Assembly (NCBI GenBank): GCA_965178125.1 | Contig: OZ237739.1 | Span: 372,001 to 436,000 of the forward strand | Reading direction: 5' to 3' | DNA from: Bilabrum cf. latius | Lineage: Eukaryota | Length of the DNA: 64,000 nucleotides | In this document: piece after piece, positions 39,001 through 64,000 of the stretch | Numbering within the stretch: position 1 is the stretch's first letter | Layout of the letters: every line of letters starts with the position of its first letter | Program-made: the position numbers and the translations under genes | Notes under the pieces: model-generated | What the model was told of the DNA's origin: nothing | Seen by the model: only the letters and a program-made list of their open reading frames with translations | Databases searched by the model: none

Positions 39001-39956
39001 CATGGTCCAGGTGATGTCCTGGGCAAAGTATCCTGGCTACAAAAGGAATTGAGCCGACACTGTGCGGAAGTGGTCTGCAGATGGCACGGCCTGCCCGTTT
39101 CCTGCCGAGCCGCCACCCGCCGTCGTGAACTCGAACACCGTCGGCTGGATAGTGGCGACTTGCGGCCAGGCCTACACGTTTGATGAAGCTGCTCCGGCAG
39201 AAAAAGAAGGGTTCGGGATGAACTCGTCCGCGCCAACGCTGGCCCGCACGGTCTAAAAACCACCTCGAAGATAAACCTGCACAGGGTCGATGTCTTCATT
39301 CAGGGTGACGCCTTGCGTCACTTCCACTGGTACAAACTCCGGTGAAACACTGATGAACAACAGGAGGTATGAATACATCTTCCAGCCGGGCGGTCCGCAC
39401 ACAGAAATCAATCCCGAGGCGTTGCTTCGAACGAACGGATGATCAATGCAACCGTCGCCCGGCGGAAAGGTCCGCACGGCCGGCGAAATCGATCCTAGCA
39501 CATACTATCCGCTTGCATCTACTGATAGAGAGTCGATGGCGATTTCGGTGTTGGACCCCATCACCTCTTCAATCCTCGTGCCGTTCGGAACCACTGCGAT
39601 CGATAAATGAACAGCAATCACGAAACCTCTTGAGAATATTTGCCCAAGAACGTTGCAAAATGCGGGAAAGGGTGGTTGAATGTCTTCATTGTCTCAAGGT
39701 AAGGCATCAAATCGGCCATTTCAGGCAATACGTGCAGCCTGCAGGTCGTCACGTCGTTCAAGCCCCGCTCCTACTCACCGAAATCGATCCATGGCTCAAA
39801 CCCGATGCTGCTGCCCACGTTATCAAACTCAAAAACGAGATCAAAGCTCGAAAAGGGTGCATGCGAACCCTAACCACTCTGAAATGTAACTTGCGGAATC
39901 GGGCTCGCGGTCGCACATGCTGCAAGCAGAGCAGCGCTCAATGCGCCCAGTTGCAT
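1..39956 (-). CDS. Giant secreted, membrane-anchored adhesin-like protein 1 (>13,200 aa; C-terminus runs off the left edge): signal peptide, long Ig-like repeat array, EGF-like, 2x TSP1, multi-pass TM domain; requires TAG=Gln
   Basis: ATG at 39956 gives MQLGALSAALLAACATA-SPIP (signal-peptide-like). Exon 1 is 39956-39779, a GT-AG intron spans 39778-39594, and exon 2 runs from 39593 to <1. The main minus-strand ORF-track fragments from 39501 down to 3348 all share one frame. Every break I inspected (about 70) is a TAG, with sensible sequence continuing on both sides. The frame stays open to position 1. Confidence 0.88.
800..3265 (-). other. Multi-pass transmembrane region of giant gene 1 (~9 hydrophobic helices split by a ~400 aa charged K/R/D/E-rich loop)
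   Basis: Hydrophobic stretches include AIIMLTVIIAIVFAVLLALYLVF, IFMITAFVLWAFLLAAPLF, YLMFFVLFIILTIFAMFVISF, IFVFVAYVILLILPVPMLIIFMQIW, ITGVFFSAVALILFIPTLAWGL, FVLMLAAAMVTVVWCGVIL, LLAAIIIGTLALTALAIATWL, LPIVIAAIIAWLLLITHVAI and VIVILATLIWVSAGVAITVYW. Confidence 0.75.
3370..3985 (-). other. EGF-like repeats plus two thrombospondin type-1 (spondin-type) repeats in giant gene 1
   Basis: EGF-like: CSGNGGC...CECAPGWTGPSC and CNGNGVC...CECDPGF. TSP1: CQVSAWGGWGECSLECGNGTQIRTR and DCVVGNWTAYGNCSAECDGGNQNRTR. Confidence 0.9.
11165..14927. repeat. Displaced ~1.3 copies of the 2940-bp (980 aa) coding repeat unit of gene 1
   Basis: Sequence from 11165 recurs at 14105 (+2940). Segment 12103-14927 matches the copy starting at 17992 (offset 5889) almost base for base. 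Confidence 0.9.
17050..25728. repeat. Tandem coding repeat, period 2940 bp (980 aa), ~3 near-identical copies
   Basis: Matching ORF fragments and TAGs recur at 17992/20932/23872, 18409/21349/24289 and 19279/22219/25159. Confidence 0.95.
27164..33464. repeat. Tandem coding repeat, period 972 bp (324 aa), ~6.5 near-identical copies
   Basis: Equivalent TAGs at 27316, 28288, 29260, 30232, 31204, 32176 and 33148, an exact 972 spacing, with only scattered substitutions. Confidence 0.96.
39594..39778 (-). other. Spliceosomal intron (185 nt, phase 1) of giant gene 1
   Basis: Donor TTCG|GTGAGT and acceptor TTCATTTATCGATCGCAG|TG. Splicing restores ...EPWIDFVVPNGT... in frame with the 39501 ORF. Confidence 0.8.
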
Positions 39957-40202
39957 TCTTCGTCAAGCTTTCTGGATTAATCAAGTTGTTTTGGTAGCAC
40001 TCGGCGCAAAAAAAACTAGCAGAAGTCGCTTTGATCAGTACTACGGGCTATGAAAGAACCGGCTGCGTAGTTACCGAGGGAAACGAGAGAGAGAACCAAG
40101 TTGTGCACCACACTTGGTCGCAACTGATCGCAATTGAGCAGTGCTAAATATGTATTTGAAATACGCAGCCTCCGCTCCATAACTCCAACAGATATCCACA
40201 TT
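39957..40202. promoter_or_regulatory. Short AT-richer intergenic region between divergent genes (giant gene 1 / GH78); candidate bidirectional promoter
   Basis: Head-to-head ATGs at 39956 (-) and 40203 (+), with lower GC and an A-tract near 40010. No specific motif recognised. Confidence 0.4.
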
Positions 40203-43200
40203 ATGACTCTAACTGGTGTAGTGCTACTTTTATTTGTGCCGGTGTGGGCTTGTCCTAATCTGCGATTCCCTTCCGCCTATCAATCCGAACTCCTGGCACT
40301 CACGCCGAGCGGTCTACGATTGCGCGTAGAATCCGTGGCAGGGAGCAATGCTTTATCTGGGGTTGGATTTGGTGATGTATCGATTCAATTCGCCACGGAA
40401 GCGGGCGTCGAAAGCATGAAGGTCCTCGATTTTCCATGCGAATCCGTCCCAGATCATGTTGAAGTCGGGCCGGCAGTCGCTGCTAGCATACTTGAAGATG
40501 CTTTGCCTGGATCCCTTGCGAAGCTTGTGCTAAGGTCACAATCTTCATAGGTATCGATAAGCCTAGCCATAGGGGCCCCGAGTAGCGCTGCGTGGATTGG
40601 CGGGTACAATGCGTTGCGTGGATCCATGCAGGGCAAGTGCAAGGCAGGGGCGACTGTAATGTCAGCCGTGCTGCAATCTACCGCTGTAGGGTGCTCCACT
40701 CTGTACGTGAATGGAAATCGAATCAGCAGCCCAATGGACCCTGGGTGGGCCCACGTCCCGCAAGTTCGGTGGCCGTTCAAGTCCTACGACGTCACCGCGC
40801 ACGCCACGTCAGGCTCGCAGGACGCCGGCGGCGAAATCGTGGTGGCGGTTCTGCTGGGCAAGTGCATGTGGGGATATCGCGGCTGGGACTGCCTCGAGGG
40901 CGACGACCCTGCCGCCTGTCAGGCACTGCTCGCCCAGCTCACGATCACGTGCTCGGGCGGCTCCCAGCAGGTGCTCGCCACAAACACCGAGGGCGGCACC
41001 TCAGGCTGGCTCGGCACGCAGAGCCCCGTGGTCTTCGACGATCTCTTCGAGGGGGAGGTGTGGGACCAGCAGAGGGCCGAGGACCTTGAAGGCTGGATGC
41101 TCCCGGGGCCCGTGCCCCACCCGCCGTCCGGGCCGGGCTTTCAGCCGGTAAAGGCAATCACCCCCTACGTCAGCAGCAATCTGGTGCCACAGACAAACCC
41201 GCCACTCGCCGCCGTCGCCAACCACACGGTTTCCAAGGGTCCGTACCGCGCCAAGGACCAGGTCGTGTGGGAGTTCGACGACAACCGGGCTAGCATCTGC
41301 ACGCTCCAGATCTCGAGCTCGCTATCTGGCCGGGCCGGCCTGCAGGGGGGCCAGTGGCTCGCGGTCCAGTACGGGGAGCTGGTGAACGACGATGGCACCG
41401 TGCACAACCAGTTTGGGACCGGTTGTCCCGTGGACAAGGTCAACTGCGCCTCGCAGACAGACAACGTGACGCTCGGCAGCAGGGTGCAGCAGGACGGGCT
41501 GCTGTGGGAGACGCACTTCACGTATCACGGATTCAAGTACGCCGCCCTCTTTGGGTGGCCCACCGGTGCACCGCTTCCGCCAGCAGATTCGCTGCAATGC
41601 GTTGCACTCAGCAGCTCGATGCAGCCACGCCTTGACATGCAATTTGGGGACGGCTCTACCATTGGCAAAGAAACGCAGGTTGGCGGCGGCAGCTCACTGC
41701 CAGCTGCAACCGTGCTGCAGACCATCACCAAGGCAGTGGCCCTGACCCAGCTAAACGCGGTGCATTTCCACCCGGAGGACTGCCCCACGCGGGAGAAGAG
41801 GGGTTGGATGGGAGACACACAATGGGGGGCAGAGCCCCTCATGTTCGCCTTCAACGCCGAGCCAATCTTCGAGGTCTTCACGCAGTCCATCAGGGATCAC
41901 CAGACGTTCGGGTGCGCGCAGCCTCCAAGTGCCAGGACTCTGCGAGGCCACACCCCGGGAAAGGCTGTGCAGCACGCCACGAGTGAAGCCTACGTGTACG
42001 GTTCAAGTGCCCCCTTGCCAGGTCCTCCTCACGAGCTGTGCTGCGGGGAACAGAAGAGGTTTGGGTGCACGCCGGGACGCACCCCCGTGAATGCGAGCGG
42101 GAGCGTGCCGGACGTAGTGCCGTTCCCGTGGGGTCCGATTGGCGGGTTTCCGGGCGATCCAAGCTGGATGGCAGCGGCCTGCACCATCCCATTCGGCAGG
42201 TACACTGCGTACGGATCCCTGAGTCAGCTCGGCAGGGAGTACGTCGTGTGCTCCGACTACCTTGCATTCATGGAGAGGAACCTGATTGGCGGGCTTGCCA
42301 TGTGGGGCTTTTACGGGGACTGGATTGCCATCGACAAGGACTCGAACAGCACCCTCATGAGCACCGCATCTCTCATCATCTCGGCGCAGCAGGGGGCTTC
42401 CATGGCCAAGTCGTTGGGCAACTCCGAGGATGCCACCAGGTGGACTGCGCTCGCAGCCAAGGCAGGCCTGGCCATGCGCGCAGCCTTCAAGGACCCGGCC
42501 ACTGGCCGCTACGACAGCGGCAAGGGCATTCAGGCCTCCAACGCTATGGCCCTGTACACCGGCGTGGAGACGAACGGCACCGGAGGAGCGGCCACCGCCC
42601 TCATTAAGGACGTTGTCACGACCCGTGGCATGCATCTATCCACGGGATCCTCGGCTTCCAGGTACATCCTACAGGCGCTCGAGCTGTGCGGGTCGCCCGA
42701 AGGCGCGGGTACCGTGCTTGCGCCTTCTACTCGACTCAGCGGCTCCCACGTGGCCGCACAGCTCGCGGTACAGACGACACAGCCCTCTTGGGGTTTCTTT
42801 GTTGTCAACGCCAGCTTGCCTCAGACCATGTGGGAGAGATGGGACGTGACCCCGCCGAACGTGGGCGCTTCCTCGCTCGACCACCCGTTCCTGGGCGCTG
42901 GTGTGCAACGCTGGGCGCAGACCAACGCGGCTGGATTGAACGTTGGGTACGATGTGAGCGGCTGGGGGCAAGCGAGGAACGCTATGGTCTGCACCATCGC
43001 GCGAGCCGAAGCCAGTGGCATCAGAGGAGGAAGCGAGATCCCTGAGAACTTCGCTGCAGAGTGCCTGGATTCGACGGGTACGCATCGAGGGGTCTTCAGT
43101 GCAAAGCTCTCCCCCAGTGCTGGTGCAGTCTCTCAGATTGGCCAAGCAAGCGCGAGGCTTGAGACTGCGAGGGGGTAGATTCGATCTAGCTGGGAGCTCG

Positions 43201-43535
43201 ACCTCAACCAGAGGTCCCTGAGCGCCAGCCTGATCGGGCCGCATGGCACACCCGCAGTCCTCGAGGTACCGCTGCAGGGGCTTGCCTCGGTGCTGCAGCC
43301 TTCAAGCGCTTCAGACACGCCCCGGAATCTGCATGTGCGCGCGAGTCGCGGTGACGAAGTGATGACGCAGTGCGAGGTAGACCTGGACCGCGTGGATGGA
43401 GTAGGGCTAGCCGTGAGTCCCTCTGCCGTGTCATCAAGGTGCCATGGGGTTATCATGTCAGGTACTGGTGCCGTGCGAGTTGAGTCGTCTCTGCGTGGTG
43501 ACGCTCAATTAGCATTGACTGTACGAATGGCATGA
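40203..43535 (+). CDS. Secreted glycoside hydrolase family 78 (alpha-L-rhamnosidase-like), ~1110 aa, two in-frame TAG (Gln)
   Basis: Signal-like N-terminus MTLTGVVLLLFVPVWA. GH78 motifs FTYHGFKY, PEDCPTREKRGWMGD, TMWERW and SLDHP, plus C-terminal TARG*IRSSW. ORFs 40134-40550, 40614-43178 and 43290-43535 share one frame and are joined through TAG at 40548 and 43176. Ends TGA. Confidence 0.88.
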
Positions 43536-43695
43536 GTGCCAGCAGGCACAGTTTTGAGCTCTTGGAGCGAGGTGCCATGTATCTTGCATGTAGAGAGCTT
43601 CTGCGTGCCAGACTGCGTGTTTTTGGTTTCAAACTTAATTGCTTCCTCAATCATCCAAACCATACTATACCACAATCTCGGATCCTACGGCTATT

Positions 43696-46584
43696 TCATT
43701 TGGACAGGAACGACCCAATGTGGGTCGGCGTGTGGCACACCTCACGCAGCATCATGGTAGCGTAGCAGCTTTTCGGCAGGCTGAACTCTAAGACGAGCGC
43801 AACCCGGTTAGGAGCTTCGCTGTCCAGCGAAATGGTAGCGGCCGCACCTGCTACACCTTTGCTGCTCTCGCTCCCTTCGTCCTTGGCTGCCTTGGGTTCG
43901 TCCCGCTTTTCGGTCGGGCACTGCTGCACAGAGGCTGGACCAGACAGCCCAAGCACGCCCCTGCAAGGGAAGTCGCCCGCACGAGCAAGTCTATCGGCGT
44001 CAGTGTCAACAAGATCAGCCCTGCTGCTGGCGACGTGCGTTTGGTATCGCCATGACACGTCCGTCGCCTGCCGCACCAGCTGCCTGTACCCTCCGGGCAT
44101 TTGGGGCAGCCCGAGTCGTCCGAGACACGTGCCCTGCTTGGTGAAACAAGCGACCACCTTGCCACTCAATGACTCGTCGCTCTCCGATTCGTCAAAGTCG
44201 GCCAGCACCCCGTCCTGCAGCATGAGCCTGCAAGCCTCCTTCAGCCCAACCTTATGCTGAGGCCACTGCACGAAGACACCTGGCAGCGGCATCACGACGT
44301 CGTTGATATCGTAGGCGCCGCTGGCGGCCTCTTCTTCCGTAACGACGTGCACCGCAGGGAAGCCCCGAGATTCTCGCTTGGGCTTATGCCCACCCTTGCC
44401 TCGATCCTTCGCGCCTGAAGCTTTCTCGGCGTCATCGTCTTCAGTTTCATCGGTTGGAACATCGGCCTCGCGGCTCGCGTCCAAAACGAGGTCGCCTGCC
44501 ACCACGCGGTCTCCTGGCAGCTGGGTAAGCCTGGCCGTGACCATGCGGTTCCAGACGAAGGACTGGTACGCGTGGATGTAGAGCGAGACCAGATGCTTCT
44601 GCAGCTTGCTCACTGGAGTGAGGGCGTCCGACCGGTCCTCCTCGAGCAGCAGCCCCCGGATGAGGTTATCTTCGTGGGAGTCTCCCGGGACCGTGGGGAA
44701 CAGTGCGACGGCATCCGTGAGGCTGGCCCCGCCTGATCCATACGTCTTCGATTCTGCTTCCTTCTTGTCATCTGACGCGTCAGCATCAGCATCTGCAGCC
44801 GCAGATGAAGAGGACGACTAGGCCGGTTTGTCAGTGCTACTTTTCCCGTTCGCCTTGTCAGTTGCCTGCTGCAGCCAGGGCCACAGCTTGCGCAGGTCCG
44901 CAAGGCTCTTGCACCCGGTCGCCGTGGAGCCCGATGCAGCTCCAGCTGATCCTTTCGCCGCACCGTCGCCGGCCCCTTTGTCATCGCTGCTTGCCTCGAT
45001 ACCCTTGGCACGGAGTCGTCCAGCAGCCGACTGGCCCATGTTCTCCAGCAGCTTGACCCAGCCAGGCAGCCTCAGCATGAGAGTGTACACGTCCTGCGCG
45101 CCGCGACTGAGCAGGCACTGTCCAATCACGTGCGTCCCAACAGGTCCGGAGCCGAAGCGTTGCATGCCGTAGTAGTTGATGAAACGGTAACCAGTTGTCT
45201 TCCACGCTTGCAGCGAGGTCTCGATCCCGCTCTGCACCCGATCCAGATCGGGAGAGTGCTTCACCTCTCCACCAGCGCCCGAGCTTGGCCCGCCGTCGGC
45301 CTGGACTTCCTCTCCACTGCCTTCCATGGGGGCCTGCCTCAGCGGCTTGTATCCTAGCGGCCTGGCTTGCCGAAGCACCACCGTGAAACGGTTGCCTTCA
45401 AGCCTGCCCATCGTCGGCTGCGCCTCGTCCTCCACAAAGGCAACGTCACCGACACGAATCCCGGGAAGCGCGCGGTTGATGTGCGCGAGCCGGTTGGGCT
45501 CGAGCTTCCACACTGCCATCCGCTGCGATGTCGCCGCTCTGCGGTCCTTGGTTCCAGCGTAAACCACGTTGCCGCTGCCACGCAGCACCCGGCGGAGCGC
45601 CTGCACGGCGTGGATTGTATCGTGGTCTACTTTGAAAAGCGTGAACTCAGTCCACGGGGGCCTGCCACGCGGCCACATGGGCCCGCTGCGTCGGACTTGG
45701 TGAGCATCCTTCTTAGTGCTGAGCACAAGGCGCCTGCGACGATCCTGCGGGTGACTTCCCGCCCCGGCACCGGATGATGCAGATGCCGAGGAGGAAGATG
45801 CGGCGGAAGAGGACGAGGAGGACGACGAGGAGGATGATGCCGGTTCCGCCTTGCCCGGCTCCGCTGCGTCGGTGCGGAATTCTCCACGGCTGGAAAAGGT
45901 CCCCTTGAAGTGCTCACGCACAGTGTCGTGGAAGCGAATGCGGACTTCCTTGTCGTCGGCGTTCGCCTCGAGCACGAGATCTGTGGGGCGGCTCTCCGCG
46001 TCCAAGCGTAGCCAAGCGAGAATACGAGACGCATCGCCATCTCCTACAATATCAGTAAATGCGGACGATAACTCTTCAATGTCGATAGCTGCGACGATGT
46101 CATCCCACTTCTGCGATTTTGGAGCTGGTTTCGCCTTGACCTTCGGTGTTTTCACCGGCATGGTTACATTCCGAAGCCGAACCACTTCTCCACCAGGCAT
46201 GATCTCATTGACCTGAAAATCTGAAAACCTGTGACGGGCAAGAGAGCAGGAAATTTCGTCAAGACTATAGAAAGTCGATCCATTCTGTCGCTGCCAGGCA
46301 CGTCACAGCGGACCGAATGCCTGCTGGCAGTTGCAGTTGCACAAAGCTTACCTGCACTTGAATTGCCCTTCAATTCCACGGTGGCTCGAGAGGAAAGATG
46401 TAATGCCAACATCAGTCTCAAGTGGTGGTACTTGTGGCAGCTTTGGCCGGTCGACAACAATAGCTCTCCGCTTCTTGAAGGATCCTCCACTGTCGTCTCG
46501 ACCAGCAGGCCCCGCATGCCGTGGCCTCTTGTGACCGCCTCGACCGCGGCCTCTCCCTCTCCCGCTACCCTTTCGTCTGTCCAT
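43696..46584 (-). CDS. PUS7: Pseudouridine synthase 7 (TruD family), 2 exons (46584-46352, 46228-43696), one in-frame TAG at 44818-44820
   Basis: ETDVGITSF...GQFKCR|FSDFQVNEI is restored across the intron. Motifs YAGTKDRRA, GNRF, FINYYGMQRFG, HAYQSFVWN and FSLPKSCYATMMLRE are present. Ends TGA at 43698-43696. Confidence 0.93.
46229..46351 (-). other. Spliceosomal intron (123 nt) in PUS7
   Basis: Donor AG|GTAAGC and acceptor CTCTTGCCCGTCACAG|G. Splicing restores the KCRFSDFQVNEI motif. Confidence 0.88.
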
Positions 46585-46707
46585 GTCACCTAGTAGGTTG
46601 TTTGCTACTCCAACTGAATCTGCTTGCCTGTTCTTTGGTAGCGATAGTACGGCCGTGACGAGTGCGACAGCACCCATGTCAAAATTATTTTGCAAAGACC
46701 GTGACGC
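46585..46707. promoter_or_regulatory. ~123-bp divergent intergenic spacer between PUS7 and mago; candidate bidirectional promoter
   Basis: Inferred start codons at 46584 (-) and 46708 (+). Confidence 0.45.
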
Positions 46708-47561
46708 ATGGCAGCAGCAAGCAAAGACGCAGAGGTAAGTCCAGCTCCACATACTGGGCAGAAGGCGGAACAGGGCGCTGAAAAAAAGGGCGAAGCAAAG
46801 CCAGATCCCGCCCCACGACCTGTTGGAGTGCCTGACAAGGAGTTTTATTTGAGATACTAGTGAGAACACGCAGTAAAGCGCACCAGATGATTTTATGTCG
46901 CATATTTAATACTTTGGGAGCACAAAATGCCTCTTATGTCTCTATCGCAGCGTTGGCCATCGCGGCCGGTTCGGGCACGAATTCTTAGAGATCCAGTTCT
47001 GCTCGGATGGCACGTTCAAGTATGCAAACAACAGCTAGTACCGGCATGATAGTATGATTAAGAAATCTGGTGAGATGCGGATCCATTTTGGTGACTTGCT
47101 TCAGAGTTTGTTGGCGGATACAGCGTCACAGCTTGGTGAATCAATGAGCCTTTCTCTTGCAGTAAGGGTATCCCCAGCTGTGGTTGCTGAGGTCTAGCGA
47201 ATAGTCGATACAAGCGAAATTCTCAGGTGAGTTCTTCTTGGATGTCGCGCGGTTTTGGTATGAGAGCGGGACGGGCGATTTCATGCTGGAGTGCCACTGG
47301 CAATGCCTTTTTCCCCCTGCTTGCAGCTTTGATGACGAGAATTGGCCAGAACCAAACGAAGTAGGGCGATAGGAGCTCGAGATTATCACAGATTAGGAAC
47401 ACGTCAGTTTTGTGTGTGCTAAAATTGGTTCAATGGTCGATGTCAAAGGCAGCAAGGATCCCAAGGGCATGGAGAAGCTGTATTACCTTGTATAGGATCT
47501 ACGCTGTTTAGCTTTCAGCTTGATTTCGGCCCACTTCAAGATCAAGCCAATACCGTAGTGA
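46708..47561 (+). CDS. MAGO: Mago nashi (exon junction complex core), 4 exons: 46708-46859, 46951-47069, 47163-47226, 47327-47561; six in-frame TAG
   Basis: The spliced product reads ...[34 protein letters not shown]...[55 protein letters not shown], then TGA. This is collinear with canonical Mago ([22 protein letters not shown]...GRQELEI...[24 protein letters not shown]). The three introns are GT(GAG)...CAG: 46860-46950, 47070-47162, 47227-47326. Not in the ORF track. Confidence 0.96.
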
Positions 47562-47775
47562 CGCTGGCCCCTTCAAGATCTGCACTTGGCTGGTGTAGAT
47601 GCGGTGAGACTTGAGCAAGTTGGCGGAGCCGTCGTTGAATACTACACTACACTAAAGCTATACGTTATATTCATTCAAAACATACGCGCCACGCACTAAT
47701 GGTGCGTGGTTTGTGGTCGCATTTTGACGCACTCAAACTAGTGCAATTCGGGGGGCTCACACACAGGACGATCGG

Positions 47776-50700
47776 TCACACCCCCGTCAGAGGATTCCGC
47801 ACCGTTGCGGCTCTATCCTCTCCTGCCAAGGCCGGCGGGGACGGCGGGCGGCTCTCTTCCGCGCCATCCTCACCGCCATCCAAGGGAGGGCTCGGCTCTG
47901 GTGAAGGCGTGTGGACTGCATCGAGTGCGTCCATCTCAGCGTCCTCTTCGGCGAGCGTTGGTGCCACCTGCTCTGCGGCAGCGCTATCCCTAGCAATACG
48001 GGGGGAATCATCCGTGTCTGGTGCAGGCATTGCCTGCGCACCATCTGGTACTGATGCAGCTGCAGCTGTAGCTGCTCCAGAGTTGCCTCGCGCGGCCCGG
48101 CCGTGGTCGTCCTGGTCGTCCAGCGCAGCCCGCTTGCCCGTGTCCGACCCTCCTTGCGCCTGCACAGCACTAGGCCCTCGTATCGAGGTCGGTGGCAGTG
48201 CGAGATGTCTTGCTGGATGCTCCTACTCACCGCCATGAGCAGGATCATCCTCTTGCACGGACTCCCAAGAGTCTGCCTCTAGGCCCAGCTCGATCGTGTG
48301 CTTGGCTTCATCCTCCTCCAGAGTGCGCTGCTGGTCCTTCGTGCGGAAGAATGTCGTTCCTCTAAACACTGCACCGTCCTTGCAGCACCACACCAGGAGG
48401 ACCAGGACTACGAGCAGGAACCACAGCACGGACGTGAGCACGCTTGCCACCGTGTCGTCGTACTCCTTGTCAGTGTTGTCGATGGAGATCAGCGTGCCAT
48501 CCCGCCTGAGGTCTAGCAACTCAGGCTCCTCTGCAGCTTCGGGGAATGCAAGGTGCATGAGCACCACAAGCCATGCCGTGAATGCCGCGATGCCAATCGG
48601 CAGCCGAACAAGGTCGTGGGCGCGGGCAAACGGCATCGGGTTGACCATACAGCTTGCAGCGGCGAACACGGTCAGGGCCACAGCACCGATCACAACTGCC
48701 GCAGTCACGTCCCATATCCTCGACAGAATCACGCCGCAGAACGCCACCACGAGCATGCATAGCCCCAACGCCGCAACGAACCATGGCGCCATCTGCAGCT
48801 CCAGCCTCCACGGCTCAGGAGGCTTGTAATTCCGCAGCGCCACGGCAGTTTCATCGCTCCTCGTGATTGGGCTCTCGTTCTGCTCCACGAGCACGTTCAG
48901 CTCCGTGAACTCTGCCATGGTCCACCTTCGCTGTTCCCTGCGCTAGTGCACCGTCAGCCCAACCATGAGGACTGGGATGAAGATCAGCAGCGCGATGCCC
49001 GACAGGATCAGCCCGATCACGTGGGTCAAGCTCCAGCACTCGAAGCGATCGCACTACCCGGGGAAGTCGCCTTCCACGAGCAGGCCGAACGGGAAATTGC
49101 ACGTCCAGATCTGTAGGAAGATCACGAGCATTGGCACCGGCGCAATCACAAGGCCCAGGTAGGTCGCGCCAACCAGGGTCAGCCACACAACCGAAGGCGC
49201 CTTGTCTTTCACGTCGATCTCGATCTCTTCCTCTTCATCGATTACCTCGATGATTTCGTCGGCATCCGAGTCCACGTCTGACACGACGGCATCCAGCACC
49301 TCCTCGATCTCCTCCATGTCGACCTGCTCCGAGGCTTGCACCCGCAGCTCGCGCTCTGCACCGTGGTGGCCTACGCGGCGCTGCGTCACGACCTCTTGCG
49401 CAGGCCTCATGTTTGCCGTGCTCATCACGCGACTGAGCGAGCCAATCCGCTGCAACGGGTTCCCAGCGGTTGAACCGCCCTGTGCAGCTGACGCACCACC
49501 CACACCACTGCCCGCTGCAGTTGTTGTCATGGTGGGATCAGAAGGCGCACGATGCCCAGTCACAGTGATGGGATTCTTCGCCGAGTCGACACGGTCCCCC
49601 CGCACCGAGTTCGTCCTCGCGAGACTTCGTGCTGTCGCGATCCGCTTCAGCTCCTCCTGGTGCTGCTTCTCGCTAGTATGCTCCTCCTCTGCCAGCTCGG
49701 CGTCTGCTGTGACCACGATGAGGGCGATGACGGCCATCGCCAGGAAGATCACCAGGAAGAAACCGTACAGCGGGATCAGGCGGATACCCAGGAGACTGTA
49801 GCCCCTCATCACATGCTTGATGAAGGAGAAAGACAGCCAAGGAATATCCGCCAGGAACAGCGGGCTGACCAGGGCAATCGCAACGATGTACGAGAACCAC
49901 ATCATGAACCAGTTCCTCCAGTTCGAGTGGATTTGCTGCGTCGGTAGCAGCCAGTCTACCTGGTCAAAGTGGTCGGACCCGTCCAGGCACGCGTACAAGA
50001 TGCCGGCCACGACGAGGCTGACCAACAGGATCACGAACAGCACGGCGAGCGCAATGGTCTGGTAGTCGGACGCGATGAGAGGCGCCACGATGGAGATCGA
50101 GAACGGCACCTCGGCAACGTCGCAGAGCTGCCTGTCAACGGCACGCTCGAGCTGACCAGACGTGGGCGTGAAGCACGGAAGCGTGTTGCACGGCTGAGAT
50201 TCGTTGAGCGTAGGGCACTGCGAGCCGTCGCCAGCGGGAACAACGAGCACGGTTCGATTCCTCCACCTGAGGCCGCCACCACAGGACTCAGAACAGTCCC
50301 CGTACTCGGTCCAATTGCCCACGATGCAGTCTACTGGACATACGTGCTGGTTGCACTCCTGCACTTCCGCAAGCGCTGGGCAGCCCTCGCCGCCGTGCGA
50401 GGGATATCGGATCACCTCGCGCGTTCTCGTTTGCTCGCCGCCATTGCATTCTTCCGTGCAAGTGGACCAGCTTGTCCACTGCGTCACCGCGCAGTCTCGG
50501 GAGCACGACCCGGCGTCACACAGCCCGGGATTAACAGAGCACCCGTCTGCCCTGCAGAACGGATCCTCTTGGTGAGCAGAGCACTCGCACTGGCCGCCGC
50601 TGTCGGCAAGGCACGCGCCGTTCCCGTGGCACTGATCCTTGAGCAGAGCGCTCGGGTCGCACTGGCAGCACGAATCACCCGTCCAGCCAGCATCGCACTC

Positions 50701-53700
50701 GCAGCGCCCCAGGGGTAGAGATCCAGGCGGAGCACACCGGCCGTTGCCATTGCAGTTCAGGACGGAATCGCAGGTCACCAGAACGGCAGATAGCTCTGTG
50801 TCAGCCTGGGCGAGGCGGTACTGCAATCCCTCCGCTGTCGTGAAAGATGACCCAGCCGTGTACCACTGCAAAATAGCACTATGTGGGATGATCGTCCCAC
50901 CGGGCACCAAAGGGGCTACGGTGGCAGCCCCGACCAGAGTGACGTCTTCGTCAACGTCAATTTGATCCAGACGCAGCAGCAGCACGTCCACGCGCTTCGC
51001 TGTTGACGTAAGTGTGGCGTCCTAAAGACGACGCTACTTCCTAGATTCGCCAAGCCTACTGACGCCGTGCGCACCGATTTCACTGAGGTTCTCCGTGAAA
51101 ACATCGGGAACTGACGTCCGAATGTGCTCCGCCAGCTGCTACATACGGCGGAACCCACCCAGCGAGCTTCCGCCCGGCGTGAACCTGTCCCGCAAGATCT
51201 CTTCAATGTCCACACCTTCGATGAAATCGTTGGTCGCGTTGCTTGTGATGTTGATGACAGGGTCCAGGGCCGAGTCTAGCTCGGGGAACTGCTCCCGGAT
51301 GGCCGTGTCGTTCGGCAGCGAGAGGCTGAGGTTGGCGTTCAGCAACGCACTGAGTGCTCTGAGTGAAATATTCCCGAAGAACTCAATCGAGTACCTTGAA
51401 GTGTCCAGGTGGCTGCTGTTCATCCCCACTGCGGTTGAATCGCTTGTATTCACCGAGACGAGCCCGGCCGGCATGAAAACTGCCAGGGTGACTTCCTACG
51501 CGGGGTTCGTGGCGTTTGCGTTCTTCACCGTAATTCCCAGCTGGATCGCATACGGGCTATCGGTCGGCACCTCATGCAGCGGGAATCGGTCCTCTAAGTC
51601 CAGGACAATGGGAATGCCAGTCTGCAGTTCTCCGAGATCTGTACCCGAGTCAGTCGTGCCACCACCTCCTGACGTCACGCCTGCCGTTACACTAATGGAA
51701 CCGCCTGGCGGCGGATTATCGGTCACGACCGTTCGGATCCTCACGCGCACCTTTTCAGGGACTGTATTGTTCGAATTGGAATTCGAAAGCGCGCACAGCG
51801 GAATCCTCACTTCCCCCGTCTCTCTATTGATCTCTACGAGAGCGAGGGCGCCCTGGAATCCTCCCGTGCACGACGAGTTCAGATCTGCCGAATCAGGAAT
51901 GATATCAAGAACATCGGTCGGAGATAGTGTGCCCACGGGCTCAATCTTAACGGTTACAGTTGTATTGGACATTGTTCCCTCTGGAACGGTCACGTCAACT
52001 ATGATGTCAACGGTCTACCCGGGCACAAGGGTCTTCGTACCGGTTCCATCCGTGCCGGTAACCACGCTCACGTTCACAGAAGCCTTCGTTGTGGGAACCA
52101 AGGGCAGTGGAGATGACGGCTGCACAGCAGTGCGTCCTCCGGATGAGCCACCACTTCCGTTGCCACCGGATCCGTCACCACCAGATGACCCAGGTCCGGT
52201 GTACGGCCCTGGCAGGTTGTCGATCGAAACACCCGGCTTTGGTGAAATGGGTACACCGACCTCAACATCTGTCGTGGGCACAGCAGTCACGATGATTGTC
52301 ACGTTCTCACCCAGTCCTAGCTTTGGAATGAGTGCCAGCAGCCCTCCGTCTGGGTTGCTAAAGACTCCACCGGCCCCTGTCGACCCGTTACGTCCGTCGT
52401 ATACATGCCCGATGCCTGGGATGAACACACTAACAATCGTGTAAGGGGGCCTCGAGCCAGTGGTGCCGTTCGATCCATGTGGAATCAATGCGTCGTCAGT
52501 GATCGCCACATTGTACATAGGCGACGAAGAATTCTCGCCGTGACCCAGAGTCACCTTGTACTAGAACGGATCTCCTGCATCTATACCACCCCCGCTTGGT
52601 AAATCAGGCAATTCCACATCGAATGGCGCTGCGACTGGCTCAACAACAGACAAAGGACTGACAGGGGTTGTCCCGCTCGGCAACTCCTTACCGTTTGTGA
52701 TCAGTTTAATCTTTCCGCCGTCCAGGGTGACGCCTGGTCCAGCCGGCACGTCGTCATCTACTTCTACAAGCAGCTTGATCTTCAGGCCAGATGCGGCTGG
52801 ACCCGCGTTGGTTACATCGCAGAGGTCCAGCCGCACGACGTTCGAGCCATTCACGCGGCTCAAATATGACTATGGTTGGCTGAACACTGGACATGAACTC
52901 GTGATTTGAGTCCCGTTGTCTAGCGTCATCACCACTCCAACAACCGTTAGGCCTTCAGGTAGATCGACTACAAGCGTCGCATTGCTCGCAGTTGAGACCG
53001 GCAACGCGATGTCGACCGTCACATTGAAGCGCTGGCCTGGTGTCGCAGCCAACGGTGACGGGGTGATCGATCCGGTATCGATGGACGTGGAAACTGCCGG
53101 CCCGTCTACGCTTATACTAGGTTGCGTCGCAAATGGTGTACCAGCCGTAGGTGTGACGCCGACATCCGGGCCCGATGCATGCGTGAGAGTCAGCTGCGGC
53201 GATATGCTGCCCGGCTCTCCAGTGGTTGTGCCTGCCTCTGCGCTAGGCTTGATTCGTACACCGTACTAGATGTCTAGCACAACGCCGGGAGCAATCGGCC
53301 CTGGAAGAACAAAGACGGTAGTGTTCGTTTTCTTGCTGGTAATGCCGTCGATCCGCATCCCATTCACAACGACATACTCAAGATCATAACCGTCGCCAAG
53401 GGAGGCATCGTCGAGCACAACATCATAAGCAGCAGAGGTCGAGTCGTTCGAGTGCTGCAGGGTGAAATTGAACTCGACCACATCACCGCCCTCCACTCCG
53501 GTCACCGCAGCAGGTGAAATCACTGGTGGCACAAACACAGCCTCGCCAACCGGCACTGTTGCTGCAAAGCCACTAGTTACCACGCCCTGACCAGACCCAC
53601 CTGGTACTGTGCCTGGTCCGGTTGTGTTGAAGCGAACGGAGGCATCTACCCCAACTGAGCCTCCGGTTGTACCTGGTGCAACGCTCGCGCGCACCGTCAG

Positions 53701-56700
53701 CTCAATATCGACGAAGTCGTTGCCCTGCAAAGGAGACGCCAGTATGTCGCACAAGGGGATGCACACGCCGCCAGCAGCACCGGCACTGGTCCCCATTAGG
53801 CCACCGCCACGGATAGTGACTCCTGGCCTGGTATCATTCAAGTTTTCGTGTAGTCCCGCACACGAAGAAGAAGCATTCCCGCCTCTTACATCGATCCCTG
53901 CAATCGAGAAGTTGTACAGGGCATCGGAGGGCTGTGTGTCTAGGCAGACAGCCGGATCGACTGTTGACCCAGCAGGAACTCGAACCGTCACCTTCACATC
54001 TACTGAGCCAGTCGGCGCGGCTACGCCAGGATTTCTAGAGGAGTCATCCGGCTCAATTGATACGGCCACAGTCGGCTGCGCGATCTCGACCAGTCGACTA
54101 CCATCGGGTGGCAAGGCAGTTCCAGTCACGTTCCCTTCTGGAACATTCGCCCACGACACGACAGGAATTGCGGAGTACCCTGTACCGGCAGCCACAGAGT
54201 CTTCCAGGGTCACGCTGTAAGAGACTGACACGGTTGCATTGGGAGGTAGCACGGGTATCACGAATGCCTCTCCCGGTTTTGTGCCCGGTAGCACCGAAAT
54301 CGGCACCCCATCGACTAGCACAACGACGTCATTGATGGATGCAAGACCGCCAGCCAGCATACTGTCGGATATGCTCACATTGTACAAACGGGCTGACGAC
54401 TTGTTGCTGGTCGCCAGCGCAATGCTCACATCGTACTTATCTCCAGCAACGAGGCCGCCGCTCCCCCCAGTGGTGTTGTCAGCCGGGACGATTTCAAAAG
54501 AAATGAAGGCAACATCAGGCCGAACCACCTTGACTTCAGTCGAGTTCGGAGCCGAGACACCCCCGCCATTGTTTTGACGCAAACCTGCGCTCCCGATGAA
54601 AGGCGGACTTTCACCTCCATCGCCATCGTCTGCAAGCTTGCCTTGCAGGCGAATGCGCAAGGACCCGGTCGGGGATGTGGACACCAATGAGCACAGGTTA
54701 AGTTGTGCGGCAGTTTGTGACACAATGGAGAGACCGCCACTATGGATTGCACCACTGGCACAGTCTCCTCCTTCCTCTGATCTTCCTGCGCCCGAAACAC
54801 CATCAGCAACTACATCCACGATTGTAAGCCCCTTCGGCAGCAAGCCCTACGCCGCGAGGATATCTAAGATACCACCAGGCATAGTGCCAGCGGGAATATG
54901 AATCTCTACCTCGAAGTCTATGGTTTGACCAGGAACAGACTCTCCAGGGATGGATGCCCCAGGCCCGACTGGCCGAACGCTAACGCTCATAGTTGCGCGT
55001 CTCGCAAACCTCGTCGCATTCTTGTCTGCCTCCTCAAAGTCCACGTAGATCCGAACCTAACCGGGATAATCGAAAGGCGAAGGGCCGGTCGTCAGCCGCC
55101 TCGAGTGGTACTGATCGATGGTTGGCGTGCCAAACTCATCAACCGCAATCGACGGATGAGAGTAGAAATCGAGATCAAAGGCCGGTCTATACCTGCTACC
55201 CAGCTCTAATCCACTAGTCACCTTGAGCCGCAGTGTTACGTTGACCCGACCCTGCACCGCCTGCAGGGCCACTAGTGGACCGGTATCGTTGTAAAGCGGC
55301 GAAGAGTGTGACTCGTTCCCGATAATCGTCTCGTTTCTGGTGATGCCAGAGCCGAGCTACCCGCTCGCGTCGAACAGCGTTACCGCAAATGCCGTCGAGC
55401 GATTGACTTCAATGAAAAGGTCAACTACGATGTCGTCACCCGGAACGATCTCAAAGTCTGGTGACGTCACATTTGTGATAACGAAGTCAATGTCAGGCTC
55501 CACAACCTGCAGGACAGCATGCTCCACATGCGAGGAAAAGGCCAACTCGGGGCCTCCTACGACCGATGCGACGATTGCTTGGCCATCCTTCGTTGCATTC
55601 GCATCGGCGACCTGCACGGTTGCTCCGACCTGCAGGGTCATCGGAGCCGCCAGCAGCAAGTCGCACATGTCAAACCCTTGACCCACCTAAAGCTTGTTGC
55701 CTATCGACCGTCTTGACTGGATCAACGTACCTGATCCTGGTCGGCAAGGCGGTACTGGGCCCACCGTATCGATATCATCAACAAACAAAATGCTCTCTTC
55801 GGATACGTTTAGCATCATGTCTATGTAGGTTCCCGACAGGACACCGGCGGGTAGCAAAATGTCTGTTGCGATCCTCATGGACGACCCCATAGAAACAGAT
55901 AAGCCTCCTATGGCATCATCTGTTGCGAATGTCGAATCGAAGGAAGGGAACGCAGACTCTACTTTATCATCAACCGCAATGAGGCTCAATGCTTCAGTCT
56001 AAGGGTCACACGGCGAGGTCTAGTACCGAAGTGAAACACGCAACGTGATGTTTGAAGTGAGCGGAATGAGCGAACCTGCCTCAAGCATCACTCGCACAGC
56101 TATGCTTTCATTCGGACTCAGCGAAGCCAGCGTTCCATTGCTCCCATTGAAGTCGACACGCATTGGAATTAGACCTTCAGGCCCGTCCACAGAATCGTAG
56201 ATGAGATCCACTCCATACGCAGAGCCATCCCCCACATTCATGATCTCAAACATGGTCAACAATTCGGAGCCGGCACTTACGTTGCTACTGGGGTCAACAG
56301 TTATTGATCCGTTTACAGCAAGCACAGGTTTCACAAGCTCGATATAGGAACCAGATGCTGCGGCTTCAATCCGCCGCCCCTCATCGTCTTCAGCGCTAAT
56401 GGAAGCTCTAATAGAAAGCTGTCCAAGAGACGTCGAGTGCACAACGAATGGCCATTCAACCCTGATGTAAGTTGCATTCGCTGTTGGAGCTGAGGCGATG
56501 CTGCTTACATCCCCGAGGCGAAGTACCAGGCTGTCAGTACTCACAACCGGAGATGTCAAGGCGTCCTCCAGTTGGGAGCCATGGACACTGCTCGATGCCG
56601 AGGCACCCGACAGCGTTAGATTCGGAGGCATGACACAGTCTGAGTACTCCAAGAAGTTTGCCGCTCCAAGTAGCGGCGCCATCAGGGACTGGTCAAACTG

Positions 56701-59700
56701 GATCTGGACCTGAAGCTACCTGCTGAGCCCGCCAGGGATGCGTACAAGCGTCTGCATAGTCACAGCATCTCCAGTACCTACACTGAGTACGGGCTTAATG
56801 CTGCTATAGTCATCGATTCGCACCACCGAATGTGCAATCGCAAACCCCCCACTTCCAGGAGACGATGTTTCAATATCAAACTGCTAGTCAGCACCTTGCT
56901 CGACACGATGCTGTGTCCCATTTCTTGGTTGAGACGGGTAGAAAGACACGGCGACTTCCGATGAAGAGTTGCCGAGCAGCGGTACAAAAGGTGATAGCAA
57001 AACCTCCACCTCAATTTGCACACTTCCTCCTAGAGGCAGCCTCGCGATTTCAAGCAAGGCGATTGGGTCTGATGGGTCGATATCAATACCCAGAGCACCA
57101 TTCGAACTCACCAATCGAATTCGGACGAGGCTGTAGGGGCTATCGACTCGACCAAGAGCCAGATCTACTACCGAGATATTAAAGACATCAGCTGCACTGA
57201 ACGCATCGTGGCTGATGGTGATATTCCATGCCACAATATCTCCACCCACAACCCTTGACGCCACCGAGGGACTACTGGAAACTCGCAAAGAGCCCCTCAC
57301 CACTTCGAGCTCAACAGATGACGAGAGGTTCACAGCATGCTCAGATATCAACGTAGCCGATGCATCTACTGCAACAGTAAATACATTCGGCGGTAAGTCC
57401 TATGCCACTGCATGGAGCACGACCTCCACGCCCTCCACAGTCAGCCCGTTGTCCGTGCCGGCGTTCGTCACGTCGCCCAGCTGCACCGTCGCCGTGCCGG
57501 CCGCCCCGTCCACGCTCCAGTGGGACGAGTTCAGGCCGCTCAGCGCGCCCGATCCGCCCGCAAGCGACGACGTCACGTTCGACCCGGACCCTGCCGTGGC
57601 TCGCACTGACACCACCTCCAGCAGCTCCAGCACGTCCGCTCGAGACAGGCTCACGCTCACCGACGACCCCACCAGAGTGCCTTCCGCAAGCTACAGCACC
57701 GCCGTCAGCTCCACCACCTGCCCCACCGCCACGCGCCCGGGACCCGCCACACTAGGATCCTCCACGCTCGCGTTCCACACCAATCCAGGACCAGGCACTG
57801 ACACGGCCGTCGACTCAGGCGCCTCGGAGCTCTCGTTCCGGCTCACCCCGTACGAGCTGCCCACCACCGGGTGCGAGCTCCACTCCACCCGCACGTCCGT
57901 CGGCACCGTCGTGCCAGATGCAGCCGCGTCCGTCAGACGCACGCGGTACACCAGCACAGAGCTGCTCACCACAGACTCCAACACGGCCCACTCGCCGCTC
58001 GTGCTGTGCCCGATCACCGACCCGCTCGTCTCGCGGCTGTACCGCTCCGTCCCGTCCACCACCACAGACTCCACCACGTACGACGGGCCCGGCAGCGACG
58101 CGTCCACCAGCCGCACCCAGTACGCCTGGTTGTATCCCGCGCCCTGCGTCGCGTTCACTACCACCACCATCTGCACCACGTCGCCTCCGTCGCCCACCGC
58201 GCTGGCAGGACTCACAGACACAGACACATCCGGCTCCAGCACAGACAGGCTCGCCGACTCGGAGCTCATCGTCTCCTGCGTCACGAATGCCGCATCCACA
58301 TCGATGCTGGCCCCGCGAGACACAGCGCTCACGTTCTCCACGGTCGCCTCCAGCACCACCTCCAGGATCTCCCCGGCGCCAGACACGCCCACGTCCCGGT
58401 CCACATTGCGCAGCACGCACAGAGGCGCCCGGTACCACGACGCCAATGGACCGCCCAGACGCACCACAGACAGCCCGGACAGGTCATCCAGATACGACTG
58501 CACGCCCGACCCGCCCGACCCCACACCGCTGCAGCTCGACACCAGCACGCTGCTCGGCGACGAGTCAGTGCTGCCGTTCACCACCACGCGAGCCGACACC
58601 ACCCGACGCAGACCGAGACCACTCACCAGCGACGATCCCGGCACAGACACGTTCAGCACCGCATCGCTCATGCGGGCTTCCGGCAGCGCCACGCTCACGT
58701 TCACAGTCACCACGCTGCCCACCACCACGTCCAGGCCGCCAGATGTCGCGCCGTCCGAAGACACAGACAGGCTCAACGATGGCGACCCCACGCTCAGCGA
58801 CGATGCAGACGTGGTCGATACCACGGACTCGTTTCGGGACTCAGACGGGCTGGGATGGCTGCCCCACCGCACGCTCACGAAAGGCACAGGGTACGATGCC
58901 CCGGCCTCCACGTCCGACGACACAAGCACCTCCCACTGCACGGCCAGCACCTGACCCGCTCCCACCTCGCTCAGCACAAGCACCGCGTCGGCCAGCGACG
59001 CAGACCCGCCTGCCACCAGCGACCCGTTCACCCACACGCGACCCACAGAGTACACCGGAGCCCCCGTGGCCGTCAAGCTCACGTTCGCCAGCACCGAGTC
59101 CGCGACCACCACGTCAAACACAGACGCGCCCGCCGACGCGACGGGCCGCAGCACAGTCGAGAACAACAGAGAGTCCCCGCCGTCCACGTCAGATAGCACC
59201 GACGGAAGCAACACATCCGGCCGAGACAGGCCCTGCCCCGCCACCGTCAAAGTCACGCTCGAGTTCGTCACGGCAGGCACCACGTCCAAGCTAGACACAG
59301 ACGCGATCACGCTAGACGTCGACCCGGCCGCCGCGTCCCGAAGCACGCGCCCGCCCACCACCACCTCGATGGACTCGCTCACGCCATCCAGCGTGTCGTT
59401 GTTCACCATCGTGCACGGCCCGATCACCACCTCGCCCGTGCTGGCGTTCACGCTCGCGTGCGGCGCGCTGCCCAGCAGTGACAGTGGCGTCACCAGCACG
59501 CCGCCGCACACCACGCGCAGCTTCGTCAGAGACGGCCCGCTCACGGACACCACCGAGATGCTCGCAGGGTCCAGCACGCCGTCGGGCCCGCCAGGACGCA
59601 CGCGGATCACCACGTCCCTCGCCGTGCCCGCTGGCAATGCGGCGGCCACCACCACCTCCACCGACTGGCCGCCCACCACGCTCGACGGACTCAGCGACGA

Positions 59701-62700: not shown

Positions 62701-64000
62701 CATCAGCACATCTGCCTCCGCTGCCACGCTCGCGTTGCGGGAGTCGCCCACATCGGGGTGCGACCACCACCGGGCAGACAGGCTCGCGTTCACGCTGCCG
62801 CCAAGGTCGATGCTCGGCAGAAGCTCCACCTCCACCACCACCGACAACGAGTCGCCCACGTCCAGCCGAGGCCACACGATCACCGCGCCTGCAAGGCTGT
62901 CCGCAGACACCCCGGATGCCGACGCAGATGCCGTGTCCGCTCCCGCGCGACGAGACCCGCCCTCGCTCCACGCCGGCTGCACCACGCCGTTCACCCACAC
63001 GCCAGACACCACGTACCTGCCGTCCAGCAGCGTCGAGTCCAGCAGCGTCACGTTGAACACAGACGCGGCCGATCCGCCCGCATGCCCCACCGTCATGGTG
63101 AAGTTCAGCTTGTCGCCGCCGTCCGTGTCCGTGAAGGCCACGGGGCTCACGCCGGGCGCTGCCAAAGACCCCTCCGATACCGTCAGCGTCACCACGCGAG
63201 ACACGGCCTCGCCGCCGCTCAGGTCAGACCCAGACACAGACGCCGTCGCATCCACGCCCACGCCGCCCTGCGCCGCCGCCGTGTTGCGGACCACGCCGCG
63301 CAGCACGATCTCCACGCCCTCCACAGTCAGCCCGTTGTCCGTGCCGGCGTTCGTCACGTCGCCCAGCTGCACCGTCGCCGTGCCGGCCGCCCCGTCCACG
63401 CTCCAGTGGGACGAGTTCAGGCCGCTCAGCGCGCCCGATCCGCCCGCAAGCGACGACGTCACGTTCGACCCGGACCCTGCCGTGGCTCGCACTGACACCA
63501 CCTCCAGCAGCTCCAGCACGTCCGCTCGAGACAGGCTCACGCTCACCCACGACCCCACCAGAGTGCCTTCCGCAAGCTACAGCACCGCCGTCAGCTCCAC
63601 CACCTGCCCCACCGCCACGCGCCCGGGACCCGCCACACTAGGATCCTCCACGCTCGCGTTCCACACCAATCCAGGACCAGGCACTGACACGGCCGTCGAC
63701 TCAGGCGCCTCGGAGCTCTCGTTCCGGCTCACCCCGTACGAGCTGCCCACCACCGGGTGCGAGCTCCACTCCACCCGCACGTCCGTTGGCACCGTCGTGC
63801 CAGATGCAGCCGCGTCCGTCAGACGCACGCGGTACACCAGCACAGAGCTGCTCACCACAGACTCCAACACGGCCCACTCGCCGCTCGTGCTGTGCCCGAT
63901 CACCGACCCGCTCGTCTCGCGGCTGTACCGCTCCGTCCCGTCCACCACCACAGACTCCACCACGTACGACGGGCCCGGCAGTGACGCGTCCACCAGCCGC
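47776..64000 (-). CDS. Giant adhesin-like protein 2, paralogue of gene 1 (>5,400 aa in window; N-terminus beyond the right edge): Ig-like repeats, EGF-like, 2x TSP1, multi-pass TM; requires TAG=Gln
   Basis: The main minus-strand fragments from 63993 to 48165 share one frame, and the ~23 breaks are all TAG. Ends TGA at 47778-47776. The C-terminal region aligns with gene 1 (NWRN, PVPML.IF.QIWTC.FPFG, W.LELQ, NP.PF.RAHDL.RLPI). A small intron near 48230 (GTGAGT) cannot be excluded. Confidence 0.87.
48380..50775 (-). other. EGF-like, 2x TSP1 and multi-pass TM region of giant gene 2
   Basis: CNGNGRC...CECDAGWTGDSC, DCAVTQWTSWSTCTEECNGGEQTRTR and DCIVGNWTEYGDCSESCGGG, followed by ~9 hydrophobic segments matching those of gene 1. 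Confidence 0.85.
57417..64000. repeat. Tandem coding repeat, period 2943 bp (981 aa), >2.2 near-identical copies, continuing off the window
   Basis: Equivalent TAGs at 57691, 60634 and 63577. The two 974-aa ORFs are near-identical. Confidence 0.95.

Follow-up and report, generated by a model that had tools for sequence, protein, structure and literature searches.

In the stretch of DNA analysed here (64 kb, hereafter ‘the window’), genes that are expressed, spliced and conserved frequently use the triplet TAG as a sense codon. The best explanation, in which we place high confidence, is that the window is GC-rich nuclear DNA of a eukaryote with spliceosomal introns, in whose cytoplasm UAG is translated as glutamine, with UGA serving as the working stop and UAA not standing for glutamine. 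The original prediction had proposed that UAG is decoded as Gln, and the columns of the Mago nashi alignment, an orthologue in a second organism, residue likelihoods and spliced contigs that retain TAG all agree with that proposal. The kind of code is already known (from Iotanema and a few ciliates), whilst the lineage that carries it is probably new.

The gene on which the assignment was originally based, mago nashi, is a four-exon gene on the forward strand (window positions 46708–47561) with an in-frame length of 573 nt. Its exons are as follows.

46708–46859, forward strand: exon 1, with the ATG at 46708, an N-terminal extension of ~45 residues and then the start of the Mago domain.
46951–47069, forward strand: exon 2, with an in-frame TAG at 47036–47038 (Pfam Mago_nashi, E 2.7e-15).
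47163–47226, forward strand: exon 3, with an in-frame TAG at 47195–47197; it lies between two contig joints as a 62-letter side.
47327–47561, forward strand: exon 4, which holds four of the TAGs (47370, 47394, 47493, 47556) and ends in the TGA stop, 47559–47561 (Pfam E 6.7e-32).

In-frame TAGs thus start at 47036, 47195, 47370, 47394, 47493 and 47556, with no TAA and no internal TGA; all coordinates of the six TAGs and the terminal TGA that had been described for this gene were reproduced exactly from the sequence. The translation matches the Mago_nashi profile (PF02792) with 110.9 bits over profile positions 69–142 and 57 bits over positions 7–44, against a cut-off of 27, and Mago chains in the PDB (fly and human structures) align to it across the whole C-terminal half (E 2.8e-29). 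The full-length domain match is common to the window gene and the Mago family (PF02792; 1hl6, 2hyi, 1oo0), the differences being the ~45-residue N-terminal extension and the six TAG-encoded positions of the window gene, which is ~60–70% identical to its best homologues over the C-terminal 75 residues. The last two codons (47556–47561) form a tandem TAG-TGA, such that a near-identical protein results whichever way the TAG is read.

The residue encoded by TAG was assessed from the columns of an alignment of Mago homologues. A full HMMER scan with exon 4 gave 1,071 matches, the best 150 of which were aligned to the spliced translation, in which each TAG was written as X; the query of the scan carried Q at the TAG sites (4 of 77 residues in a very conserved protein), which introduces a slight circularity. 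Among these best 150 of the 1,071 homologues, the column of TAG 47370 holds Q in 148/150 and that of TAG 47493 in 147/149. In the alignment to solved Mago structures the two codons correspond to the Q of GRQELEI and the Q of YYLVQDL, respectively, and their predicted placement at conserved Mago glutamines is therefore borne out. The remaining four of the six columns are mostly non-Gln in other species: in the same set of 150, that of TAG 47036 is variable (N in 43/72, Q in 5), as is that of TAG 47195 (K in 54/106, R in 22, Q in 5), and the other two comprise a column with N in 53/150 and D in 45/150, and the C-terminal tail, which is ragged. When log-likelihoods were summed over all six columns, Q (−14.8) was followed by S (−24.3), K (−25.2) and E (−26.6), with Leu outside the eight best residues listed. 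Gln is the best-fitting residue for TAG both in these columns and in the orthologue alignment of giant gene 2 described below, and it ranks first in all of the column tests run, where a different residue would have spoken against the proposed decoding. Nor was a near-identical, intact TAG-free copy of mago, which had been named as another possible objection, present among the best 150 of the 1,071 matches, the top identity being 71%.

Four further genes lie in the window, together with three arrays of coding repeats.

1–39693, reverse strand: giant gene 1, open for 13,231 codons with 73 TAG, 0 TAA and 0 TGA; its 3′ end lies beyond the window.
40203–43535, forward strand: GH78 alpha-L-rhamnosidase gene, intronless, with TAGs at 40548–40550 and 43176–43178 and a TGA stop.
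43696–46584, reverse strand: PUS7/TruD pseudouridine synthase gene, with exon 1 at 46584–46350, an intron at 46349–46227 and exon 2 at 46226–43696, ending in a TGA stop.
47776–63999, reverse strand: giant gene 2, 5,407 codons with 23 TAG and 0 TAA, and a TGA at 47776–47778; its 5′ end lies beyond the window.
12105–25161, 27318–33150 and 57693–63579: tandem units detected by self-comparison, the copies of which are near-identical, including their TAG codons.

PUS7 was identified by its Pfam TruD match (E 9.4e-40), and its single in-frame TAG (44818–44820) breaks the table-11 open reading frame at 44818. Its homologues are at most 32% identical (29% for the best-scoring one) and are scattered across a sponge, a bird, a chlorarachniophyte and an apicomplexan. 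PUS7 (reverse) and mago (forward) stand head to head at 46584–46708 with start codons 124 bp apart, and the ends of their transcript contigs are separated by ~90 bp (46604 and 46696); the layout suggests a very compact bidirectional promoter and 5′ UTRs of ≤20 nt.

The GH78 protein contains the Pfam domain Bac_rhamnosid6H (E 1.9e-42) alongside N-terminal and concanavalin-like rhamnosidase domains above cut-off, whilst the C-terminal domain scores 17.5 bits, under its cut-off of 22.1. Its hydrophobic N-terminus looks like a signal peptide. Homologues are 24–31% identical and mostly metagenomic or prokaryotic, the few named ones being bacterial or archaeal, and the gene may have been acquired horizontally. 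An ENA protein, P0170 (839 aa), is 100% identical to the GH78 translation, with a coverage of 94% of the query region (residues 170–1060); its size fits the stretch between the two TAGs of the gene, and it has the look of a gene call truncated through use of the standard code.

The two giant genes are paralogues that are 32% identical over ~5,000 columns, and no intron is visible inside their open frames. Both consist of very long Pfam-blank repeat regions, followed by TSP1 domains and then a conserved C-terminal region: in giant gene 1, two TSP1 domains above the Pfam cut-off and a weak EGF-like match below it were found near the C-terminus, and giant gene 2 likewise has two TSP1 domains (Pfam). 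The hydrophobic stretches of the C-terminal region read as multi-pass membrane segments, and the overall layout looks like that of a surface adhesin, as judged from the predicted proteins. The tandem coding units measure 2,940 nt (four copies) and 972 nt (seven copies) in giant gene 1 and 2,943 nt (three copies) in giant gene 2. These long repeats came from self-comparison, Tandem Repeats Finder (longest period 500) having returned no rows in the window, and the near-identity of the units suggests that they were amplified or homogenised very recently, or else that there is a problem in the assembly.

Sequencing runs were used to ask what the transcripts carry at these codons. Sixteen runs were listed for 40100–47700, 14 of which contain all or part of it, and the contigs of X5 and X6 (from one study), X8 (from another study) and X7 were compared with the window over 39700–47800. 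X5, X6 and X8 are recorded only as guessed RNA, and we infer their RNA nature from their spliced contigs. In all three, the mago introns 46860–46950, 47069/70–47162 and 47227–47326 are skipped, with GT..AG borders, exon 1 being joined 46859>46951 and the contigs starting at 46696–46708; the PUS7 intron (46227–46349, GT..AG on the coding strand) is skipped in the same three runs. Intron sizes range from 91 to 123 nt. The contigs span 46696–47647 for mago, 40189–43649 for GH78 and 43620–46577 for PUS7, and since they skip introns and end near gene borders, the X5, X6 and X8 contigs derive from spliced RNA. No differing letters, insertions or deletions were reported for them on 39700–47800; the X5 contig over GH78 (40189–43649), for example, is unspliced with 0 other letters. 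Spliced contigs with no other letters at the TAG sites indicate that the transcripts carry UAG, with the qualification that contigs drop rare variants and thus leave room for partial editing. It had been pointed out that CAG in RNA at these sites would indicate editing, and that an untranscribed mago would weaken the case; the transcript contigs from three runs and two studies contain no CAG there, and mago is present in spliced RNA-like contigs, which speaks to its presence and not to its level. X7 behaves as DNA, with contigs of up to 275 kb; it is identical over 39700–45210 and gives no cover over mago at depth 2. Depth rises sharply at 45662–45932 (528 vs ~97 in X5), where each of the three RNA-like runs also shows numerous loose ends. 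The peak falls on the low-complexity poly-Ser/Ala insert of PUS7, and cross-mapping from other GC-rich transcripts of low complexity is its probable cause.

Across the five genes of the window (~20,775 codons) there are 105 in-frame TAGs (mago 6, PUS7 1, GH78 2, giant gene 1 73, giant gene 2 23), no in-frame TAA and four TGAs, all of them terminal. TAG makes up 15.4% of the Gln codons of these five genes, and the number of independent TAG sites is ~80 once near-identical tandem repeat copies are discounted. All four complete 3′ ends are TGA, none being TAA or TAG. The claim that the same rule repairs PUS7, GH78 and both giant genes held up, the total of 105 TAGs replacing an earlier figure of about 100, and no frameshift is needed. 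Read with table 11, the giant genes split into dozens of open reading frames. On the giant-gene strand, the other two frames hold 565 and 753 TGA triplets; the frame of the giant-gene ORFs holds 50 window-wide, none of which falls within either ORF save the terminal TGA of giant gene 2. The openness of this frame is far beyond chance. The window has a GC content of ~60% (52–70% per 2 kb) and the GC3 of the genes is 0.69–0.72. CAA accounts for 18% of CAR codons, and ~23 TAA codons would therefore be expected if TAR encoded Gln at the same third-base bias; none was seen, for which P = 9e-10 when all 105 sites are counted and ~3e-7 for 76 independent sites. UAA is not a Gln codon here. As TAA has not been reassigned together with TAG, the code falls under the table-15 type rather than the common UAR=Gln type; UAA itself may be a stop, unassigned or simply rare, the sample being four gene ends. 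No tRNA genes (ARAGORN) and no matches to RNA families (Rfam) were found in the 64-kb window.

A relative sharing the code was found by searching with part of giant gene 2, its conserved and putatively membrane-spanning C-terminal region. This region matches one ENA protein, P0163, at 81% identity, and the same query retrieved one metagenome contig, L001, of 8,890 bp and 54% GC; no relatives were found in the viral contig and genome contig collections. The frame 2..8890 of L001 is open end to end (2,963 codons) with 19 TAG, 0 TAA and 0 TGA, and its 84 CAR codons comprise 29 CAA vs 55 CAG. L001 encodes an orthologue of giant gene 2, with 50% identity over 3,031 columns, and 37 columns of the alignment have a TAG on either side. 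The partner of the TAG is Gln in 14 of these columns (9 CAG, 5 CAA), another TAG in one, a gap in two and another residue in 20 (four R, three D, three S, two each of E, G and T, and one each of A, N, M and Y). Gln is thus the partner in 14/34 scorable TAG columns, and in 11/14 of those with a local identity of ≥0.55 over the surrounding 20 residues. In this alignment the partners of ordinary Gln codons are Q in 33% of cases, E in 11%, R in 9%, D in 8% and S in 8%, and the profile of TAG is alike. The empirical log-likelihood of TAG, calculated from the substitution frequencies of the alignment itself, is −75.8 for Q, −99.3 for K, −100.4 for R and −103.6 for E, a lead of 23.5 for Gln. The 20 of 37 columns with other residues would be as expected of a fast-evolving protein, and the pairing is to be read in aggregate and not as site-by-site proof. 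The open frame of L001 and its pairing of TAG with Gln indicate that the code is common to at least two fairly divergent organisms. Two further comparisons carry little information: between giant genes 1 and 2, Q makes up seven of 83 TAG partners (background frequency of Q ~2.8%), in an alignment too diverged (32%) to decide, and between tandem repeat copies all 110 TAG partner codons are TAG, the copies being near-identical and hence uninformative on the meaning of the codon.

With regard to mechanism, only the anticodon CUA reads UAG without also reading UAA, and one would therefore expect a tRNA-Gln(CUA), which a single mutation separates from tRNA-Gln(CUG). Such a tRNA, probably a mutated copy of tRNA-Gln(CUG), would decode UAG whilst being unable to pair with UAA; the same argument for a CUA-anticodon tRNA has been made for other UAG-only codes (PMC5304391). 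The glutaminyl-tRNA synthetase would have to accept tRNA-Gln(CUA), and eRF1 would be predicted to have lost its affinity for UAG whilst still recognising UGA (and UAA, if used at all). The motifs of the eRF1 N-domain that PMC5304391 names in this context are GTS, NIKS and YxCxxxF, besides the equivalents of human E55, L69 and S70, and the Iotanema change T32G affects the residue in contact with the third-position G.

Several other explanations of the in-frame TAGs have to be weighed, two of which concern the extent of the reassignment. Reading of both UAA and UAG as Gln (NCBI table 6 type) is, according to PMC11687900, by far the commonest nuclear variant, and a GC3 of 0.69–0.72 would depress TAA, such that the codon could be missing only through GC richness. 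The size of the deficit makes this very unlikely: 0 TAA stand against 105 TAG where ~23 TAA would be expected (P 9e-10 for 105 sites, 3e-7 for 76), and L001, at 54% GC, has 0 TAA against 19 TAG although 29 of its 84 CAR codons are CAA. A dual role, in which UAG is Gln inside genes yet terminates some of them near their 3′ ends, as in Condylostoma and karyorelict ciliates, would sit comfortably with mago, in which the last sense codon is a TAG that adjoins the TGA, so that termination there would give an almost identical protein, and only four gene ends were examined. All four complete genes nevertheless end in TGA and none needs a TAG stop; TAG is found all along the genes, in giant gene 2 also among the last 250 codons, and PMC11687900 and PMC5304391 report the described UAG-only codes without dual use. 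We consider this dual role unlikely.

The remaining explanations deny that the codon is translated as Gln in a nuclear genome at all. In-frame TAGs at Gln positions in DNA would also be accounted for by a standard code with U-to-C editing of the mRNA to CAG, or by untranslated pseudogenes. Spliced contigs from three runs and two studies cover the TAGs of mago, GH78 and PUS7 without other letters, which argues against editing; pseudogenes would accumulate TAA, TGA and frameshifts, none of which is found in 13,231 and 5,407 codons, and the frames and many of the sites are kept in L001 at 50% identity, all of which leaves this account extremely improbable. That TAG specifies a residue other than Gln (e.g. 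Leu, Ser, Glu, Lys, Tyr or pyrrolysine) is also highly improbable, given that Q leads S in the Mago likelihoods (−14.8 vs −24.3) and K in the orthologue pair (−75.8 vs −99.3). Nuclear codes with UAG=Leu and UAG=Ser do exist (PMC11687900), and in several TAG columns the partner is K, R, E, D or S, but the non-Gln partners of TAG are those of ordinary Gln codons. Lastly, the DNA might belong to a giant virus or some other element that reads TAG as Gln; viruses with this assignment are known, for instance crAss-like phages (PMC9523058), and giant repetitive genes occur in giant viruses too. Against this stand four GT..AG introns removed in transcripts, three of them within the 573-nt coding sequence of mago, a gene content, as seen in Pfam scans of the five genes, that includes a core exon-junction-complex protein and PUS7, and a viral contig collection in which no match was found, and a viral origin is scarcely credible.

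With UAG read as Gln in a nuclear genome and UGA as the stop, a broader interpretation can be put forward, albeit tentatively and at slightly less than even chances: that the window represents an independent and undescribed origin of a code in which UAG alone has been reassigned to Gln, in GC-rich, intron-bearing, compact-genome protists outside the ciliates and fornicates, with at least two members, UGA as the terminator and UAA perhaps nearly or wholly unused. The two members compared, the window and L001, have 50% protein identity in their shared giant gene. UGA is the leakiest of the stop codons, and to our knowledge every described UAG-only code leans on the UAA stop. If the interpretation is true, the code would be the mirror image of these UAA-leaning UAG-only codes, and its carrier a natural eukaryote with close to a single stop codon. 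A GC-rich case with UGA as its terminator would allow the idea of codon capture driven by GC pressure to be tested against that of an ambiguous intermediate, and would also show how eRF1 can tell UAG from UAA and UGA. Nuclear codes that separate UAG from UAA are rare; as carriers of codes in which the two codons differ, PMC11687900 lists a single fornicate, a single rhizarian, one genus of green algae and a few ciliates. At the practical level, gene calling with the standard code breaks genes here (P0170 and the giant genes), and annotation of this genome and its relatives therefore needs a table-15-type code.

How the window compares with known systems can be set out for each group of carriers. 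In a literature search of incomplete coverage, no published account of UAG=Gln was found for a eukaryote that is GC-rich and neither a ciliate nor a fornicate; as the sequencing runs date from 2025, one may already have been written or be under way. Introns of 91–123 nt, a gene of at least 39.7 kb in a 64-kb stretch and TGA stops are, we presume, none of them suggestive of a ciliate, and in our judgement the window looks like neither a ciliate nor Iotanema. In Condylostoma-type codes the reassigned codon also ends genes and becomes scarce shortly before genuine stops; in the small sample of the window 0/4 gene ends are TAG, though the TAG at the end of mago immediately precedes the TGA. The UAR=Gln code, whose carriers include many ciliates, Hexamita, oxymonads, some Ulvophyceae and Amoeboaphelidium protococcarum (PMC11687900), shares with the window the reading of TAG as Gln, and tRNA-Gln(CUA) is known from UAR=Gln organisms (PMC5304391). 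These codes also read TAA as Gln, in contrast to the window with its 0 TAA vs 105 TAG where ~23 were expected.

Closer counterparts are found amongst the codes in which UAG alone was reassigned. In the fornicate Iotanema spirale, UAG encodes Gln and both UAA and UGA are stops, with 104/119 gene ends being UAA and 15/119 UGA (Panek et al. 2017; PMC5304391), and PMC9161772 confines the change, amongst fornicates, to the lineage of Iotanema. Iotanema and the window are alike in that UAG alone was reassigned, and to Gln, with no in-frame UAA or UGA, and in both cases Gln dominates TAG columns to an extent comparable with ordinary Gln codons (~41% vs 44% in Iotanema; 41% vs 33% in the window). They differ in that the stops of Iotanema are mostly UAA whereas the window genes have UGA in 4/4 cases and ~60% GC DNA, and in that a change in the GTS motif of eRF1 is known for Iotanema, whilst the window contains no eRF1 gene; none of the analyses connected the window with fornicates. 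The ciliates Hartmannula sinica, Trochilia petrani and Protocruzia tuzeti also read UAG as Gln and UAA as a stop (McGowan et al. 2024; PMC11687900). These three ciliates have the same codon assignment as the window, with UAG widely used as a sense codon and no sign of a dual meaning; they end 86.9–98.3% of their genes with UAA and have a GC content of 27.4–53.6%, in contrast to the TGA stops and the 52–70% GC per 2 kb of the window.
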